Assembly (NCBI GenBank): GCA_029934515.1
Contig: JAOZMB010000001.1
Location: forward strand, 1 to 62,300
Source of the DNA: Bacteroidales bacterium
GTDB taxonomy: Bacteria; Bacteroidota; Bacteroidia; Bacteroidales; JAADGE01
Reading direction: 5' to 3'
DNA: 62,300 bases
The position numbers and the translations under genes were made by a program. The notes below the pieces were generated by a model. That model ran no database searches. It saw only the letters and a program-made list of their open reading frames with translations, and was not told the DNA's origin. Numbering within the stretch: the first letter of the stretch is position 1; each line of letters starts with the position of its first letter. This document shows, piece by piece, positions 44,161 through 50,814 of the stretch.

Positions 44161-44211
44161 AATCAGACTTTGTTCTAAAAAAGAAATATTTTAGAACAAA
44201 GCATTCTGATT
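44161..44211. terminator. bidirectional terminator between convergent esterase and caspase genes
   Basis: A perfect 13-bp stem CTTTGTTCTAAAA/TTTTAGAACAAAG (44168-44201) nested in an outer AATCAGA/TCTGATT stem. T-runs on both strands. Confidence 0.65.
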
Positions 44212-44269: not shown

Positions 44270-46195
44270 TTATTGTTTTGTAATAATCACAAAATCATAA
44301 GTACAGCATTTGTTTGTTACTATTGTTCTATATGATATTTCATTTCCTTCTATTAATGCAGTTAAAAAATTTTCAAACTCTGTATATTCTTGTGTAAAAT
44401 TTCTTGATATTCCTTCAATAATTGATGGAAGTTGGTAAAGTGGTTGTGATGATGCAATTATTTTAAAATGTTCCAGACCATAAGGAGGTGATATATCAAG
44501 ACTAATTTCCATTGAGCCTCCTTTTGGTTCAAGTTTAAAATCTGTTGGGCTTTGTCTGTACTCAGTGTATGGACAAATCAGATTAGGTTTATTGTCTGGT
44601 TGAAAATCAATTAACTGATAATATAAAAGATAATCGCTGTTATTATTTATTTTTATTTTAAGTATCTGTTTTGATTGGAAAACAAAATAACCTAATTTTT
44701 TGTTAGATGCAGGTAAGACTTCTGCACTGATTTTAAATTTATCATTATTTATTTCAAGGTTCTTTAAGATAACTGTTTTATTATAATTTTTGCAGATTTC
44801 CATTATTTTCTTTTTAATTTCGATATTATGATTTATAAGTTTCACAGAATGATTATATTTATTTATTGTATAATAAAATGACAGTTTTATTGAGTCATTA
44901 TCAATTTTTTGTGAAACAATAATATCAGCTTTTGAGCTATCGCTTTCGAGTAAAATGAATTTCGATTTATTAATAACAGAGAGCAAATATTTATTTTCAT
45001 ATATTTCATATGACATATACAGTTTTATTTTGTGTGGTTGTAGCTGTCTTTTTTCAATAAAAAAACGCATTTTTTTAAGTTCTTTTTTGTTTATTTTTTT
45101 GTTTATTTTTACTCTGGAGGAGAACGCCTTCGCTTCAATTACAACTGCATCAGCTTTTTTCGAACTCTCATTTTGGTTTTGTGTATCCTGATTGTAAATT
45201 CCTAAAATAGTGCCTTTTGTAATATTAGCCAATTTGCCGTTGTTAATAATTACAATAGAATCATTTTCTATTTTTTCTATTATACTGTATTGTTTATGAG
45301 TTGAAATTTTATCCGAAAAAAGAAAATTATTAAGCTCGCCTTCAGCTGTTGGAAACTGTCCTTTTGTATTGTTTGCAAAAGAAATCTTAATGTGTTCAAA
45401 AAGGGCTTTGTAAGTTCTTATATTTTTATTTGTTAAGCCTTTATATAAAAAATAAGACAACGGACCTATGAAGTCTTCTGTTCCTGAAATTTTAATTTCT
45501 TTATTTTTTTTGTGCTGCATTGATGCCGAAAATATTATAAAAGAAGCTACTTTATTGTCTTCCTTCGTGAAATCAAATCCACTTTCGTCTATACGAATTT
45601 CCTTTAATTTATTTTTACAATCGCTAGTGATAAATTTACCATATTTTTTTTCCTGTTTTATTTCTCTTGACATACTTTCTGAATTACAGGCATCAATTGT
45701 AAAAAAAATATTACCTTTACTTCCAGTTTTTTTTCTCAGTTCTTGAATAATTTTTTTTAAATTGTCATCTCTAATATGTTCTTCTCCATTATATGATTTT
45801 GAGGATTTATTTTTTGCAGCATAACAAACCAATGACTCATCATAACCGTCAATTTCATCTTTATTGTCATCGCATATCTGTTGTCCGTGTCCAGAGAAGT
45901 GAAAATAAAAAATGTCACCGTATTTTAGATTGTTTGTTATGCTGGTAAATGTATCTAATATTGCTTTTTTTGATGCCTTAGAGTTCTGAAGAACAATTAT
46001 ATTTTTCTCTTCAAAACCGCGATATATAAGTCCATTTTTTATTAATTCTACATCTAAATCTGTATGTAGAATACCCCATTCTTTGGTATATTTGTATTCA
46101 GAAATACCAACAATAAGTGCATATTTATTGTTATTTTGTGCAAAACTTTGTAATAAAATTAAAAATAAAAACTGAAAAATTAGAAATAATCTCAT
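44270..46195 (-). CDS. secreted caspase-like (peptidase C14) protein with ~380 aa unassigned C-terminal region
   Basis: Signal peptide MRLFLIFQFLFLILLQSFAQ. KYALIVGISEY, catalytic His in FHFSGHG, catalytic Cys in FFTIDACNSE. Confidence 0.8.
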   Translation of the reverse strand: MRLFLIFQFLFLILLQSFAQNNNKYALIVGISEYKYTKEWGILHTDLDVELIKNGLIYRGFEEKNIIVLQNSKASKKAILDTFTSITNNLKYGDIFYFHFSGHGQQICDDNKDEIDGYDESLVCYAAKNKSSKSYNGEEHIRDDNLKKIIQELRKKTGSKGNIFFTIDACNSESMSREIKQEKKYGKFITSDCKNKLKEIRIDESGFDFTKEDNKVASFIIFSASMQHKKNKEIKISGTEDFIGPLSYFLYKGLTNKNIRTYKALFEHIKISFANNTKGQFPTAEGELNNFLFSDKISTHKQYSIIEKIENDSIVIINNGKLANITKGTILGIYNQDTQNQNESSKKADAVVIEAKAFSSRVKINKKINKKELKKMRFFIEKRQLQPHKIKLYMSYEIYENKYLLSVINKSKFILLESDSSKADIIVSQKIDNDSIKLSFYYTINKYNHSVKLINHNIEIKKKIMEICKNYNKTVILKNLEINNDKFKISAEVLPASNKKLGYFVFQSKQILKIKINNNSDYLLYYQLIDFQPDNKPNLICPYTEYRQSPTDFKLEPKGGSMEISLDISPPYGLEHFKIIASSQPLYQLPSIIEGISRNFTQEYTEFENFLTALIEGNEISYRTIVTNKCCTYDFVIITKQ

Positions 46196-46237
46196 AATTA
46201 TAGATATTGAAAATAAACAATTATCAATTATTTATTA

Positions 46238-46379
46238 TGGCAGATGCATCAAAATATTAAAGTACTGAAAATCAAACAATTACTATTTTAAAAACATAAC
46301 AAATAGAAAATAGAAATTAAAAACTAACAAATAGAAACTAACCACTAACCACTAACCACTAACAAATAGCCACTAAAAA
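46238..46379 (-). repeat. composite repeat E2 (inverted orientation): core ATGGCAGATGCATCAAAATATTAAAGTACTGAAAATCAAAC followed by CTAACCA/CTAACAA heptamers
   Basis: The reverse complement gives TTAGTGG x3 heptamers plus the core TTTGATTTTCAGTACTTTAATATTTTGATGCATCTGCCAT. It fills the gap between the two caspase genes. Confidence 0.8.
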
Positions 46380-46382
46380 ACA

Positions 46383-48539
46383 TCAATTATTTATATTTCT
46401 TACAAAAATAAATTCTCCGTTTTGGTCTCCTGTATCATTAATAACTCGAAGCTGTGGCATATTATTAGTTTTACTTGTAACGTCTTCGTTTATTTCATTA
46501 AATAAATCGCTTGCTGATAAATATGGTCTTTTATTTCTAATTAAGGCATTGATAAAATATTCAAAAAAAACACTCTCATTTGGGACTGGTTTAAGTTCGG
46601 CACTTGTCAAAGCCTGACGGCTTTTTTTTGCATATTTTTTTTTGATATATATAGAGAGATGAGATTCTTTATATTCTGTGGAAGATTTATTTTTTTTTGC
46701 ATTTATACTATTACCTGAGTTTTGTTTATTTATGTTCCTAAATATACCACCGCTGTAGCAGGCATCATTAACTAATAAAGTGTGGAGTGAGTTAATTTTT
46801 TGTATATCGTCTCTTAATTGACTATAATATATATATTTGCTTGTTTTTTTATTATCTGCATCTGAGGGCAACCAATAACCTATTGCATTTTCTTGGTCAT
46901 ATGTTCCGTGTCCAGCATAAAATATTAAAAGATTGTCTTTTTCGGTAATTATTCTTTCTAGTTCGTTAAATTTATCAATAATATCTTCGCGTGTAGGATT
47001 AGATAATAACATTATATTTTTTTCCTTAAAATTATAATCTTTAATTAGAACATTTTTTAATCTTTCAGCATCTTCTATTGGTTTATTTTCCAGGTCTGGA
47101 ATGGAGTCATGTTCGTATTCGCTTATTGGTATCATTAGAACATAATTTTTCCCGATGCCAAGCAAATTTTTAGGTGCTGGATAGTTAGTAATAGAGAACT
47201 TTTTTCTTACAGAGTTTCCTCTTTTGTCTATAGCACGGACAACAAATATACTATCATCGTTGTCAATCCAAGCATTTGTAAAAATACTGTCATTATTTGA
47301 ACTATCTATAGACATTTTTTGATTATTTATAAATATTGAATCTATCTCATTTTCACTTGTTAGAAGCATACATACTTCAAATTTATTTTCAATAATTTTT
47401 CGAGGTTTTGTATTTCTTTGTATCATTTTTCTTGTATCTATATGTGCTGTTAATACAATATCTTTGATAGTCAATTCTCCACGGTCAATTTCTATAACAA
47501 TAATTTCGTATTCTGGTTTTACCTTTTTCCTTTTGAAAATATAGCGGTTCGTATTTTTAAAAATATAATTTTTGCCCGTAGCGGGCATAAAAATATTGGC
47601 ACTAATAATAGCCGCAGAGTATTCTCCAGTTAAAGCAAATAAAGCATCTCTGAAAATGGCTTTTTTTATATTGTTGCAAAAAAGCTCGGCTTCTGAACGA
47701 GGAACTGACACGTATATATTTGGAAAAAAATCAAAATCTATTTTAACTGTTTCACTATCCGAATCATACTTGGCACTTAAAATCTCGGAATCCAATATAG
47801 GTAAAAGCTTCTCGGATAATTTCTTTTGTGTTAAACTGTCTCGTCTATTGTCTATCTTATCGTTATATGTTCTTTTAAAATAATATTCGGTACTTTTAAA
47901 ATCGTCTTTTTTTAGCCAAACAGCCATATCATCGTTTACATATTCAGTAACTATTTTTTTCAATGGAAGTAATAATTTGTATATATCTATTAAATTATTA
48001 TGACTTAAAACAAGAAATTTACTGTTAGAACTGAAATCAATAGAAAAAATCTGACCACGACCTAAAGAAATAGTTTTAATACATTTAAAATTTTTATCTA
48101 TTATCTCATATATTTTTATTTCTTTGTTAGAAGAAAAAAGAAAAAAACGACCGTTAGGACTAAATTTAACAAATGAAATTTCTTTTTCATAATATTCAAA
48201 AGTTTTAATAAGTTCAAATTTATCATCGTTTTTACTATATATTTCAACATAATCGCTGCCGACAGCTAAAAAATTATTGTCTGGACTAAAACTAATACTA
48301 TAAATATGTTCGTCAAATTTAATAGTTTCAATAAGTTTAAAAGTAGCATCTATTATCTTATATATCTTAACTGTCTTATCTCGGGAACAAGTGGATAAAA
48401 ATTGACCGTCTTCACTGAAATTTGTGATAAAAACATCTTTGCTATGAGAATCAAGTGTTGTGTGAAATTTAATTCCTGATTGTGCAAATAAATAAATACT
48501 TATTAACAATAGCGGTAAAGTAGAAATAATTTTCTTCAT
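46383..48539 (-). CDS. secreted WD40-like repeat protein fused to a C-terminal caspase-like (peptidase C14) domain
   Basis: Signal peptide MKKIISTLPLLLISIYLFAQS. About four WD40-like blades (FSEDGQFLSTCSRDKTVKIYK, FSPDNNFLAVGS, FSPNGRFFLFSS, FSSNSKFLVLS). Caspase His in LIFYAGHG...GYWLPSDAD and Cys in LLVNDACYSGG. Confidence 0.8.
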   Translation of the reverse strand: MKKIISTLPLLLISIYLFAQSGIKFHTTLDSHSKDVFITNFSEDGQFLSTCSRDKTVKIYKIIDATFKLIETIKFDEHIYSISFSPDNNFLAVGSDYVEIYSKNDDKFELIKTFEYYEKEISFVKFSPNGRFFLFSSNKEIKIYEIIDKNFKCIKTISLGRGQIFSIDFSSNSKFLVLSHNNLIDIYKLLLPLKKIVTEYVNDDMAVWLKKDDFKSTEYYFKRTYNDKIDNRRDSLTQKKLSEKLLPILDSEILSAKYDSDSETVKIDFDFFPNIYVSVPRSEAELFCNNIKKAIFRDALFALTGEYSAAIISANIFMPATGKNYIFKNTNRYIFKRKKVKPEYEIIVIEIDRGELTIKDIVLTAHIDTRKMIQRNTKPRKIIENKFEVCMLLTSENEIDSIFINNQKMSIDSSNNDSIFTNAWIDNDDSIFVVRAIDKRGNSVRKKFSITNYPAPKNLLGIGKNYVLMIPISEYEHDSIPDLENKPIEDAERLKNVLIKDYNFKEKNIMLLSNPTREDIIDKFNELERIITEKDNLLIFYAGHGTYDQENAIGYWLPSDADNKKTSKYIYYSQLRDDIQKINSLHTLLVNDACYSGGIFRNINKQNSGNSINAKKNKSSTEYKESHLSIYIKKKYAKKSRQALTSAELKPVPNESVFFEYFINALIRNKRPYLSASDLFNEINEDVTSKTNNMPQLRVINDTGDQNGEFIFVRNINN

Positions 48540-48595
48540 AAGATTATTGATTATTAGTTATTAATTAATTTGATTAAAATTTATAAATATAATTG

Positions 48596-49423
48596 TCAAT
48601 AGATATAAAATTTTCCTAAATATACCTCTTCTCCGAATAGTTCCAACTTCCAATAATATAATCCATGTTTTAAAGTTTTCTTAGGAATTGTATGTCTTTC
48701 GTAAATTCCGTTTATAACATAATAAACGGAATTTTTGTTGAAAACAGTAAGCGTAACAACAGCATCGGTCTCCAAAATTTCCCAATTAAAGTTTATAGAT
48801 TCAAAAGAGTTAAAAATATAATCGTTCTCTGGAAAAACTTTATCAGAAGAACGGATAGAACCAAGAAAGTAATCAGATAAACGCTTCTCATAGTCAGGGT
48901 CTTTTCCTGAGATAAGAAATTTACAGGCTCTCTTAAATATGTTTTCTTTATTTGATTTTAGTTCTGCGTTTTCTTTCTCCAAGACTTTTTTATTTTTTAC
49001 AAGTTCTATATTCTTTTTTCTTATATCATGCAAGCCCGACAACAATTTTTTATTTTTTACGATTTGTGATTTGCCGTGTTTTATCTGTTCTTTCAATTTT
49101 TGGCTCTCTTCTGTATATTTTTTTTGAACAATATTATTGGTCAAAAATATTGATAAACATACAAATATTAAAATAGAAGCGGCATATCTTAAAACACGTC
49201 TTAAGTTAATATTATTTTTTTTTTTAATTGATAAAATTTTATTAACTGGAGACACATAATTTTGTGTATAAACATTCATTGTTGCGTTCATTTGCAGGAA
49301 GAATTTAAAATCATTTGCAAATGATTTGTCATTGTTCATAAAATTTTTAAGTGCAAAAGTTTCGGATTTTGTTAGACGGTCATTTATAAATTTCTCCGCG
49401 TAAAATACTATTTTTTTATTCAT
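48596..49423 (-). CDS. single-pass membrane protein with anti-sigma-factor-like N-terminus and coiled coil (275 aa)
   Basis: The N-terminal helical segment FINDRLTKSETFALKNFMNNDKSFANDFKFF resembles the cytoplasmic segment of Bacteroidota anti-sigma-like proteins. TM helix VLRYAASILIFVCLSIFL. The extracytoplasmic C-terminus ends GLYYWKLE. This is a weak call. Confidence 0.45.
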   Translation of the reverse strand: MNKKIVFYAEKFINDRLTKSETFALKNFMNNDKSFANDFKFFLQMNATMNVYTQNYVSPVNKILSIKKKNNINLRRVLRYAASILIFVCLSIFLTNNIVQKKYTEESQKLKEQIKHGKSQIVKNKKLLSGLHDIRKKNIELVKNKKVLEKENAELKSNKENIFKRACKFLISGKDPDYEKRLSDYFLGSIRSSDKVFPENDYIFNSFESINFNWEILETDAVVTLTVFNKNSVYYVINGIYERHTIPKKTLKHGLYYWKLELFGEEVYLGKFYIY

Positions 49424-49444
49424 AATTTTTTGTGTTTTGTAAGA

Positions 49445-49540
49445 TTTTAGTTTCTATTTGTTAGTGGTTAGTTGCTATTTATCTATTTTTTTATAGTAAT
49501 TCTTTGATTTTCAGCACTTAAATATTTTGATGCGTGCCAT
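49445..49540 (+). repeat. composite repeat E3: TTAGTTT/TTAGTGG heptamer-like tract plus core TTTGATTTTCAGCACTTAAATATTTTGATGCGTGCCAT
   Basis: The core aligns almost base-for-base with E2 (reverse complement) and E1. Confidence 0.8.
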
Positions 49541-49601
49541 ATTATTAGTAACTTTTGTAAAACTGTAAGAAGCAAAAACTAATTTATTATTTAACGATTA
49601 C

Positions 49602-50255
49602 TTATTTATCAAATTTAAATTTAACTTCATCGAATAATTTTTGTTTAAAAATTTGATTAAATTTATTTATACTATTCTTCTTAAAATTATAGAAAGGCGA
49701 CAGCAGTTCGTATAGCTTGTCATTATTCAATTTATCTATTCTTTTTGATTTTATACCGTTGTAAATTTTCACAAGAAAAATAAATTTCTTATAATCATGC
49801 TCTTTCAATTGACGAAAAACTGTTACTATAATTTTCATCAAACGGTCTCTTTCTATATATGAAAATTCATTATCAGATATACCAATTGCGGATAATTTTT
49901 TTGTATAAACATTAAGTTGTTTTGTGTAACTTACGAGTTGTTTTTTATATTCCCATGTTTTATATATGCATGATGTTTTAAAGAAACTTGATGTTGCTTT
50001 TTCGTTTCTGTAATTAAAATTGTCAGATAATATTTTTTCTGCAAAATACTCAAAAGAGAGCCAAAGTATTGTTTTAAGGTTACCTGTTTCAAATCCACTA
50101 CCGTAAGTTTTTATGATTATCTGCTTAAAAATTTCAATTTCTAATTTTCCTTTACTGTCTTCCAACAAACATATTATTTCAAAACTTTCATTTTTCTTTC
50201 CAGATAAAATCAAATCTATAGATTTTCGCCATGTATTATTTATTTCTTTTTTCAT
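49602..50255 (-). CDS. hypothetical protein (217 aa)
   Basis: ORF only, first gene of the minus-strand block. No convincing motif. Confidence 0.4.
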   Translation of the reverse strand: MKKEINNTWRKSIDLILSGKKNESFEIICLLEDSKGKLEIEIFKQIIIKTYGSGFETGNLKTILWLSFEYFAEKILSDNFNYRNEKATSSFFKTSCIYKTWEYKKQLVSYTKQLNVYTKKLSAIGISDNEFSYIERDRLMKIIVTVFRQLKEHDYKKFIFLVKIYNGIKSKRIDKLNNDKLYELLSPFYNFKKNSINKFNQIFKQKLFDEVKFKFDK

Positions 50256-50730: not shown

Positions 50731-50763
50731 TTTGCAAAAAACAATGAACTATACATAAATTTG
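50731..50763 (+). promoter_or_regulatory. candidate Bacteroidota sigma-A promoter of the giant surface-protein gene (TTTG-21 nt-TAAATTTG)
   Basis: TTTG at 50731-50734, a 21-nt spacer, then TAAATTTG at 50756-50763. This fits the published Bacteroides -33/-7 consensus TTTG-N19-21-TAnnTTTG. It lies 52 nt upstream of the ATG at 50815. Confidence 0.45.
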
Positions 50764-50814
50764 TCTTGTAAAAATAAAAGTTATAACTAACCACTAATAA
50801 CTAACAATTCTATT

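Follow-up and report, generated by a model that had tools for sequence, protein, structure and literature searches.

A four-gene block encoding two exported caspase-like proteins

The window analyzed here is a 62,300-nucleotide stretch (positions 1 to 62,300 of the forward strand) of contig JAOZMB010000001.1, called C83 below, from the Bacteroidales bacterium assembly GCA_029934515.1, a genome of 3.34 Mb that is 98% complete and roughly 30% G+C. Between positions 44270 and 50255 it holds a block of four co-directional minus-strand open reading frames (ORFs), at exactly the positions given in an initial annotation made from the sequence alone. Read along the minus strand, these encode P0004 (217 amino acids, aa; 49602-50255), a cytoplasmic protein without a signal peptide that is the upstream partner of the anti-sigma-like gene; P0003 (275 aa; 48596-49423), a single-pass anti-sigma-like membrane protein; P0002 (718 aa; 46383-48539), with a signal peptide, WD40 blades, an immunoglobulin-like (Ig-like) module, and a C14 peptidase domain; and P0001 (641 aa; 44270-46195), with a signal peptide, a C14 domain, beta-rich domains, and a DUF4384-like module. 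The three gaps measure 178 bp (P0004 to P0003), 56 bp (P0003 to P0002), and 187 bp (P0002 to P0001). Caspase homologs are abundant in bacteria, with about 17 in this 3.3-Mb genome, and substrates or roles are known for almost none of them. The gene set at this locus points to a concrete target for such proteases, namely, the ectodomain side of a membrane protein of the anti-sigma type in which a conserved Arg marks the likely cut site.

The metacaspase-like C14 domain of P0001 spans aa 24 to 285 (45341-46126; this and all further features of the four genes lie on the minus strand). It matches Peptidase_C14 (PF00656) in Pfam with an E value of 5.6e-14 (52.8 bits versus a cut-off of 21.4), and a whole-genome profile scan also places it at these coordinates. 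The motifs FHFSGHG and IDACNSE are present, and the catalytic dyad, H103 (45887-45889) and C170 (45686-45688), the S1-pocket aspartates D48 and D168, and a D-x3-DE-x-DG-x-DE loop after the catalytic His are invariant in a 33-sequence alignment of the P0001 family. In an alignment with Geobacter GSU0716 and Arabidopsis MC4, the catalytic His falls in their SGHG motif. The AlphaFold model (predicted local distance difference test score [pLDDT], 85.7; predicted template modeling score, 0.83) has as its top Foldseek matches Arabidopsis metacaspase 9 (AtMC9), GSU0716, the caspase-Ig3 region of MALT1, and Trypanosoma brucei MCA2 (TbMCA2), all of the caspase-hemoglobinase fold, with E values of 6e-12 to 1e-8 and a probability of 1.00; yeast metacaspases are also among the closest folds. 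The N-terminal C14 domain with an intact His/Cys dyad was recovered as first described. The C-terminus, which had been called unassigned, is better seen as a conserved region of 340 residues, made up of beta-rich domains with the DUF4384-like module at the end (aa 512 to 585; 44441-44662). The match to DUF4384 (PF14326; E value, 1.6e-5; 25.3 bits) falls slightly under the cut-off of 27, and PF14326 is present in the precomputed Pfam list for a protein identical to P0001 and for many family members. At an E value of <1e-10, 45 clusters of full-length relatives (about 650 aa) were retrieved, and P0001-family sequence patterns occur at more than 536 loci in Bacteroidota genomes, the hosts including Saprospiraceae, Chitinophagaceae, Bacteroidales, Lacibacter luteus, and Cesiribacter andamanensis. 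A P0001 paralog at C123:11144-12846 is broken by an in-frame TAA into ORFs of 91 and 414 aa and is probably a pseudogene.

P0002 combines a signal peptide (aa 1 to 20; 48480-48539), four WD40 blades within aa 13 to 188 (47976-48503; Pfam E value, 5e-20), a region at aa 198 to 395 that AlphaFold leaves unmodeled (pLDDT below 50), an Ig-like module at about aa 395 to 460 that is common to its paralogs, and a C14 domain at aa 466 to 697 (46449-47144; Pfam E value, 2.3e-14; 54.1 bits versus 21.4). The motifs FYAGHG and NDACYSG are present, and an 11-sequence alignment shows no variation at the catalytic residues H544 (46908-46910) and C594 (46758-46760) or at the S1-pocket residues D490 and D592. 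The C14 part of the model is confident (pLDDT of about 80 to 95). Foldseek searches with the model returned WD40 matches only, which swamped the C14 part, and the alignments to WDR5 span about 330 columns on a low-confidence model; protein searches with the whole of P0002 were likewise swamped by WD40 proteins. Two full-length paralogs in the same genome, at C28:4008-6116 and C22:1072-3171 (702 and 699 aa; 32% and 29% identity), combine an Ig-like module and a C14 domain with about seven WD40 blades. P0002, with four blades confidently detected, is to judge from this comparison a reduced paralog of these two proteins. The presence of about four blades and of a C14 domain with an intact dyad agrees with the earlier description; of the "unknown linker" of about 240 aa proposed there, part is the Ig-like module, and aa 198 to 395 stays without assignment.

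The S1 pocket of metacaspases is formed by an Asp near "..ND.." and a second Asp two residues before the catalytic Cys, and we take the pocket aspartates of P0001 and P0002 to be the equivalents of TbMCA2 D95 and D211. Because both aspartates are present, P0001 and P0002 are predicted to cleave after Arg or Lys.

Both proteins begin with what look like cleavable signal peptides, judged from the sequence pattern rather than with SignalP: the N-termini, MRLFLIFQFLFLILLQSFA followed by Q in P0001 (aa 1 to 19; 46139-46195) and MKKIISTLPLLLISIYLFA followed by Q in P0002, combine a positively charged n-region with a hydrophobic core and an Ala-Gln junction. Such a junction is typical of signal peptidase I substrates in Bacteroidota (the "Q-rule"). 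Similar signal peptides are found in almost all of the 33 P0001-family members, and at least 13 of the approximately 17 C14 genes of the same genome encode one. Neither signal peptide contains a lipobox Cys, and a Pfam scan found no C-terminal sorting domain of the type IX secretion system (T9SS) (Por_Secre_tail or CHU_C) in P0001 or P0002; because of this, the two Sec-exported proteins are most likely periplasmic, the periplasm being the default location. The claim that both are exported rather than cytosolic is thereby upheld, with "outside the cytoplasm" narrowed to the periplasm. The same annotation contrasted them with cytosolic caspase-like effectors; exported caspase homologs are not unusual and in this genome are the rule. 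A 2012 survey (PMC3501461) had already described export of caspase homologs, WD40 as their most frequent partner domain, and large expansions in Bacteroidetes, and export is an ordinary part of the finding.

A conserved pair upstream of the proteases

The only hydrophobic span of P0003 is a transmembrane (TM) helix at aa 77 to 99 (49127-49195). It is preceded by N-terminal anti-sigma-type helices (aa 1 to 55) in which the zinc motif is lost and followed by a Lys/Arg-rich coiled linker (aa 100 to 185) that varies within the family, a conserved x-R-S motif (R191-S192), and a C-terminal beta domain (aa 190 to 275; 48599-48856) with the signature GLYYWKLE...GKFYI. P0003 had no match in the Pfam, NCBIfam, or PADLOC libraries; a search of 1.84 billion representative proteins returned 17 relatives of 245 to 283 aa that match over their full length. 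In the family alignment (A4), H-x3-C-x2-C is kept in 8 of 14 members, and the x-R-S motif precedes the C-terminal domain in 11 of the 14, with R-N in one more; one family member matches zf-HC2 (PF13490; E value, 1.5e-5). The C-terminal domain of the family is about 90 aa long, with conserved ..PGLYYWKLE..GKF.VK, and no protease match was found in this small ectodomain of P0003, the proteases being separate genes. The description of P0003 as "single-pass anti-sigma-like" is supported at the level of the family, whose N-terminal helices align with zf-HC2-type relatives and which has one TM helix. By this alignment, P0003 belongs to a sparse single-pass anti-sigma family as a relative of the zinc-binding anti-sigma (ZAS) proteins that is not itself a zinc-binding member.

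P0004 had no match in Pfam, NCBIfam, PADLOC, or the PDB, and a word-indexed protein search among 5.8 billion clusters retrieved only P0004 itself. The closest homolog of P0003 is P0169 (25% identity over the full length; E value, 2e-19) at a locus designated L119, where a 220-aa protein with 36% identity to P0004 over 219 aa (E value, 2e-34) is encoded just 1 bp upstream of P0169. A gene that starts thirty bases downstream of P0169 encodes a signal peptide and then EKYALIVAISDYGQESGF..., with which a C14 domain of the P0001 type begins (C14 hidden Markov model [HMM] E value, 2.7e-8; 40% identity to the P0001 N-terminus). Because the order P0004-like, P0003-like, exported C14 is kept between organisms at only 25 to 40% protein identity, there is good evidence from these comparisons that the genes form a functional unit. 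What had been noted as a "217 aa unknown" is not a singleton and can now be placed in a conserved pair with the anti-sigma-like gene, followed at L119 by an exported C14 gene.

Gene neighborhoods of the P0003 and P0001 families

Every other P0003-family member with upstream sequence is preceded by a co-directional gene encoding 186 to 325 aa that is tightly spaced or overlapping. This upstream gene encodes a clear extracytoplasmic function (ECF) sigma factor in locus L124 (Pfam Sigma70_r2; E value of 8e-41 to an ECF HMM), in L125 (3.5e-28), in L029 (3e-18), which comes from a genome of the same taxonomic family, and in L128 (7e-14); it is weakly ECF-like in L120 (1.7e-5) and L122 (1e-4), and the upstream gene on the contig of P0183 had no match in Pfam. 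An exported TPR-CHAT or C14 protease nearly always adjoins the P0003-family genes. Beside the two C14 genes of the window and the C14 gene of L119, the clan-CD proteases next to the pair comprise proteins with a signal peptide, TPR, and CHAT in L120/L121 (1,071 aa) and L128 (1,214 aa), TPR-CHAT proteins in L122/L123 (938 aa) and L125/L126 (976 aa), and TPR then CHAT in L124.

The surroundings of the P0001 family were surveyed at 80 loci by calling genes, tagging them with purpose-built HMMs, and counting neighbors within 8 kb. A second C14 gene was present at 27 of the 80 loci, an ECF sigma gene at 21, a CHAT gene at 17, a trypsin-PDZ gene at 16, a gene for a CHASE2 membrane protein without an output domain at 15, and a P0003-like or anti-sigma N-domain gene at 9. 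Also recurrent were the families d157 (about 157 aa; no Pfam match in the member scanned; 24 loci), d515 (about 515 aa; no Pfam match; 20 loci), and d304 (about 304 aa; no Pfam match; 19 loci). In a gene-order map read by eye, about 16 of the 21 ECF-bearing loci have the sigma gene no more than two genes away from a clan-CD gene. One recurrent order is ECF, anti-sigma, (TPR-C14), d157, small TPR protein, trypsin-PDZ, C14-DUF4384, CHASE2, d304; in another, the ECF gene is divergent from C14-DUF4384, which is followed by d515 and then more C14 genes. CHASE2, d157, d304, and d515 are absent from the genome of the window, where CHAT and one trypsin gene are present. P0003 and P0004 were also considered as relatives of the P0001-family partners (CHASE2, d157, d304, d515, trypsin, and CHAT), and this was rejected for lack of similarity.

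Two further loci of the same genome bear on its other caspase homologs. At C63:2320-9625, a second cluster of co-directional genes encodes an ECF sigma and an anti-sigma-like protein (230 and 228 aa), together with a 349-aa protein bearing a signal peptide, a 459-aa exported WD40 protein, and a 236-aa protein with K/T/E repeats. The C14-like protein of this cluster (266 aa) has no D-x-C motif and may be a pseudoprotease, and a 626-aa gene convergent to the cluster matches the full-length TPR-CHAT HMM. At C28:19859-25725, a small exported C14 protein (252 aa) adjoins three ORFs; judged by eye from their N-terminal sequences, one (672 aa) resembles a Ser/Thr kinase, another an FHA-domain protein, and the third a PP2C-like phosphatase. 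This locus would place another caspase paralog in a different signaling context.

Spacers, repeats, and flanking genes

The spacer between P0002 and P0001 (46196-46382) contains a genome-wide repeat made of a heptamer array, (CTAACCA)n, and a conserved core, and the spacer between P0004 and P0003 (49424-49601) contains the same element in the opposite orientation. More generally, this dispersed intergenic element consists of (CTAAC[CA]A)n arrays and a conserved core of about 55 bp (...ttttcaaaatagtaattccttgattttcag...). The arrays occur at 103 loci genome-wide, 91 of them outside long ORFs, and the copies in the window (46330-46370, 49440-49480, and 50787-50798) stand in either orientation relative to the downstream gene. 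Many of the array loci are at contig ends, and the element probably breaks the assembly. The composite repeats noted earlier between the genes are thus real, though genome-wide rather than specific to the block, and with dispersed repeats in two gaps of such lengths a single operon is, as the initial annotation held, not required.

A hairpin at 44167-44202, between the 3' end of P0001 and a convergent esterase gene (Abhydrolase_3), has a perfect stem of 13 to 14 bp and T runs on both strands and is likely a bidirectional terminator. This flank also holds an alanine symporter gene, an accD-like gene, and, 4 kb from the block, a type ISP restriction-modification gene. On the other flank, across a 560-bp region, a divergent giant gene encodes a protein of 3,875 aa and ends at contig position 62442; no recognized T9SS tail was found in the last 750 aa of this protein. 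Past the giant gene, positions 62443 to 72412 of contig C83 encode a 438-aa ORF, a 1,085-aa CHU_C cargo protein, PorP/SprF, and a 1,018-aa FG-GAP/CHU_C protein. Matches to the Bacteroidota -33/-7 promoter pattern are at chance level across the window; the single well-placed one, TTTG-N21-TAAATTTG at 50731-50763, lies about 50 bp upstream of the start codon of the giant gene, and nothing comparable was found ahead of the caspase block. A scan for sigma-70-type promoters was at chance level in this AT-rich DNA.

A proposed protease-coupled module and its alternatives

We hypothesize, with a probability of about 0.45, that the block is a reduced, lineage-specific, split, exported C14 version of a recurrent protease-coupled sigma/anti-sigma envelope module of Bacteroidota, in which a regulator in the cytoplasm and its anti-sigma-type membrane partner are coupled to exported clan-CD proteases with repeat or sensor domains. 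We infer its mechanism and function as follows. The N-terminal helices of P0003 would hold P0004, which may be a highly diverged sigma-like factor or a transcription regulator of another kind, at the inner membrane. Through their WD40 and DUF4384 modules, the proteases in the periplasm would recognize either a periplasmic cue or the ectodomain of P0003; an activated protease would cut the Lys/Arg-rich linker of P0003, with a candidate site between R191 and S192, before the C-terminal domain. This site-1 cut would open P0003 to intramembrane proteolysis and so free P0004, in a split form of the mechanism proposed for DdvA of Myxococcus. The mechanism is plausible because of the precedents offered by DdvA/DdvS, Craspase, and the EACC2-caspase systems, to which we return below. 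In a more specific version, which is speculative and which we consider unlikely, P0004 and its L119 homolog would be a new, sequence-unrecognizable class of sigma-like or non-sigma factor, held by a zinc-less ZAS descendant and freed when a periplasmic, Arg-specific orthocaspase encoded alongside it cuts that descendant between Arg and Ser, ahead of the ectodomain. Were this version true, bacterial orthocaspases would gain a first defined physiological substrate and signaling role, and the fused design of DdvA would have a widespread split counterpart in Bacteroidota.

A number of observations weigh against the protease-coupled module. P0004 was scored against an ECF HMM built from 9, and then 27, ECF sigmas, with shuffles and genome ORFs as nulls; it reached 1.1 bits over the full sequence and 4.6 bits for the best domain, which is not significant, as its best-domain score is attained by 36 and its full score by 266 of 2000 shuffles, and the hhalign probability against ECF sigmas was 0.4 to 5%. 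A profile of P0004 and its L119 homolog is collinear with ECF sigmas over the full length (hhalign score, 22.4; probability, 5%), at about 2.5 standard deviations above, and about the 97th percentile of, a null of 120 same-genome ORFs; against divergent sigma-like partners its hhalign probability was 0.1%. P0004 was accordingly rejected as a recognizable ECF sigma, with scores within the shuffle and ORF nulls, and the idea was kept as a positional hypothesis only: P0004 occupies the sigma position, and whether it is a sigma is close to an even bet. P0003 is without the zinc-binding His and Cys residues of its relatives in the family alignment, and the R191-S192 cut site is a candidate defined by a conserved motif only. 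The catalytic activity of P0001 is not assured because this protein reads CNSE at the catalytic Cys, where at least 90% of the family have CHSG, with G in the fourth position. Co-transcription is uncertain because mobile-looking repeats occupy two of the three gaps. The 26% frequency of ECF genes near the P0001 family can be compared only with a rough expectation of 6 to 13%, which is our own estimate (about 6% at the density of this genome and perhaps 13% in ECF-rich Bacteroidota). Finally, among the 60 nearest genomes examined, P0001 orthologs occur in 3 of the 24 that belong to the same family, and P0003 has one marginal match among the same-family genomes (G021; E value, 2.8e-4), confirmed as a member of the P0003 family; the four-gene block is not conserved in the taxonomic family and is lineage-specific.

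In the main rival reading, the role of the P0004/P0003 pair, or of another regulator, is confined to transcriptional control of the exported proteases, which would be effectors of an envelope response and would serve in turnover of periplasmic or surface proteins, in nutrition, or in competition, with no action on the anti-sigma. ECF sigma/anti-sigma pairs commonly regulate adjacent genes, P0001-family clusters hold other exported hydrolases (trypsin-PDZ and an astacin with a T9SS tail), and most of the approximately 17 exported C14 genes of the genome are far from any sigma gene. However, the WD40, TPR, CHASE2, and DUF4384 partners typify regulated, protein-recognizing proteases rather than bulk degraders; in DdvA/DdvS of Myxococcus, which controls a cyclic oligonucleotide-based antiphage signaling system (CBASS)/CRISPR island, the clan-CD (CHAT) domain is fused to, and so physically part of, the anti-sigma; and a conserved Arg precedes the ectodomain of P0003 while the proteases are predicted to be Arg/Lys specific. 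The computation does not separate output from input, and we regard a purely transcriptional link as doubtful but as the alternative to be taken most seriously. It is improbable that there is no functional unit at all and that four independent genes, the caspases among them being ordinary periplasmic proteases of an expanded family, were joined by repeat-mediated rearrangement. The dispersed repeats in two of the three gaps would fit such an origin, as would the absence of the block from same-family genomes and the lack of such neighbors for the P0002 paralogs and most other C14 genes of the genome; the order of P0004-like, P0003-like, and C14 genes at L119, kept at 25 to 40% identity, and the repeated occurrence of P0003-family genes beside clan-CD proteases argue otherwise.

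We think it quite improbable that the block is an anti-phage or conflict sensor in which the exported proteases detect a periplasmic invader protein and the module activates distant defense genes. DdvA-DdvS is a precedent for such a sensor, a restriction-modification gene is close by, and the generic "caspase" model of PADLOC matches both P0001 and P0002, but these matches cover the bare caspase domain only, and the EACC1-type caspase model NF047832 (NCBIfam) gave 60.4 bits for P0002 and 13.9 bits for P0001, far below its cut-off of 140 bits; a defense-system assignment was rejected on these scores. The block itself contains no defense effector genes, and its neighbors (accD-like gene, alanine symporter, and esterase) are housekeeping genes. 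The initial annotation offered, as pure speculation, that the giant surface protein encoded divergently from the block is processed or remodeled by the exported caspases; this idea has adjacency alone in its favor, and comparative support for it is absent. An ORF of at least 1,500 aa lies within 8 kb at only 2 of the 80 P0001-family loci, none is next to the module in any P0003-family context, and the P0002 paralogs are not adjacent to a giant ORF; the giant gene has its own promoter-pattern match and groups with the downstream T9SS genes (CHU_C cargo and PorP/SprF). Processing of this protein is very improbable, and adjacency to the giant adhesin gene carries no signal.

If the protease-coupled module is real, it would explain the frequent occurrence of exported C14 and CHAT genes near ECF sigma genes in Bacteroidota. 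If it is not, exported repeat-domain caspases are still documented as a normal, expanded feature of these bacteria.

Comparison with known systems

The RseA-DegS-RseP system of E. coli sigma-E works by regulated intramembrane proteolysis, with the single-pass anti-sigma cut on its ectodomain side by a site-1 protease of the periplasm. The logic proposed here is alike, and related clusters even hold a trypsin-PDZ (DegS-like) gene; unlike in that system, the candidate site-1 protease is a cysteine, caspase-fold enzyme, there is no RseB, and the sigma identity of P0004 is only putative.

As enzymes, the two proteases resemble the orthocaspases and metacaspases (C14B; GSU0716, 3bij; TbMCA2, 4af8; AtMC9, 8a53; PMC3501461) in fold, His/Cys dyad, acidic S1 pocket, and DExDGxDE loop, as well as in the prevalence of WD40 partners, N-terminal signal-like helices, and expansion in Bacteroidetes. 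They differ from other orthocaspases in being exported, in the C-terminal beta and DUF4384 domains of P0001, in the order of signal peptide, WD40, Ig, and C14 in P0002, and in their genetic coupling to an anti-sigma-type pair. EACC2-caspase neighborhoods with an ECF sigma and a TPR protein have been described (Kaur et al. 2021, PMC8195603), and the association of caspase domains with ECF sigma, TPR, CHASE2, and trypsin genes is common to both settings; the caspases of the block, in contrast, have no EACC domain and are exported single proteins of a different family and architecture. In Craspase (type III-E CRISPR), the TPR-CHAT protein Csx29 has as its substrate Csx30, an anti-sigma-like protein bound to the ECF sigma RpoE, and DUF4384 is found in some Csx30 C-termini (bioRxiv 10.1101/2022.08.17.504292); the block has a DUF4384-like module in P0001. 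Unlike the block, which contains nothing CRISPR related, Craspase is cytoplasmic and RNA guided.

The closest known case is DdvA/DdvS. In the block, unlike in DdvA, the protease is on separate signal-peptide-bearing polypeptides and is of the C14 rather than the CHAT type, WD40 and DUF4384 take the place of TPR, and P0003 is zinc-less with a small beta ectodomain; P0004 is not recognizable as an ECF sigma, and no defense island is attached. Common to both systems are a regulator in the cytoplasm, an anti-sigma-type protein with a single membrane span, and a periplasmic His/Cys clan-CD domain with a repeat scaffold, and relatives of P0003 come closer still, as they keep HxxxCxxC and sit between an ECF sigma gene and an exported TPR-CHAT gene. 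If the protease does gate the regulator, the block would correspond to the DegS/RseA step of envelope signaling, carried out by a caspase-fold enzyme, and to the recently described DdvA in split form.

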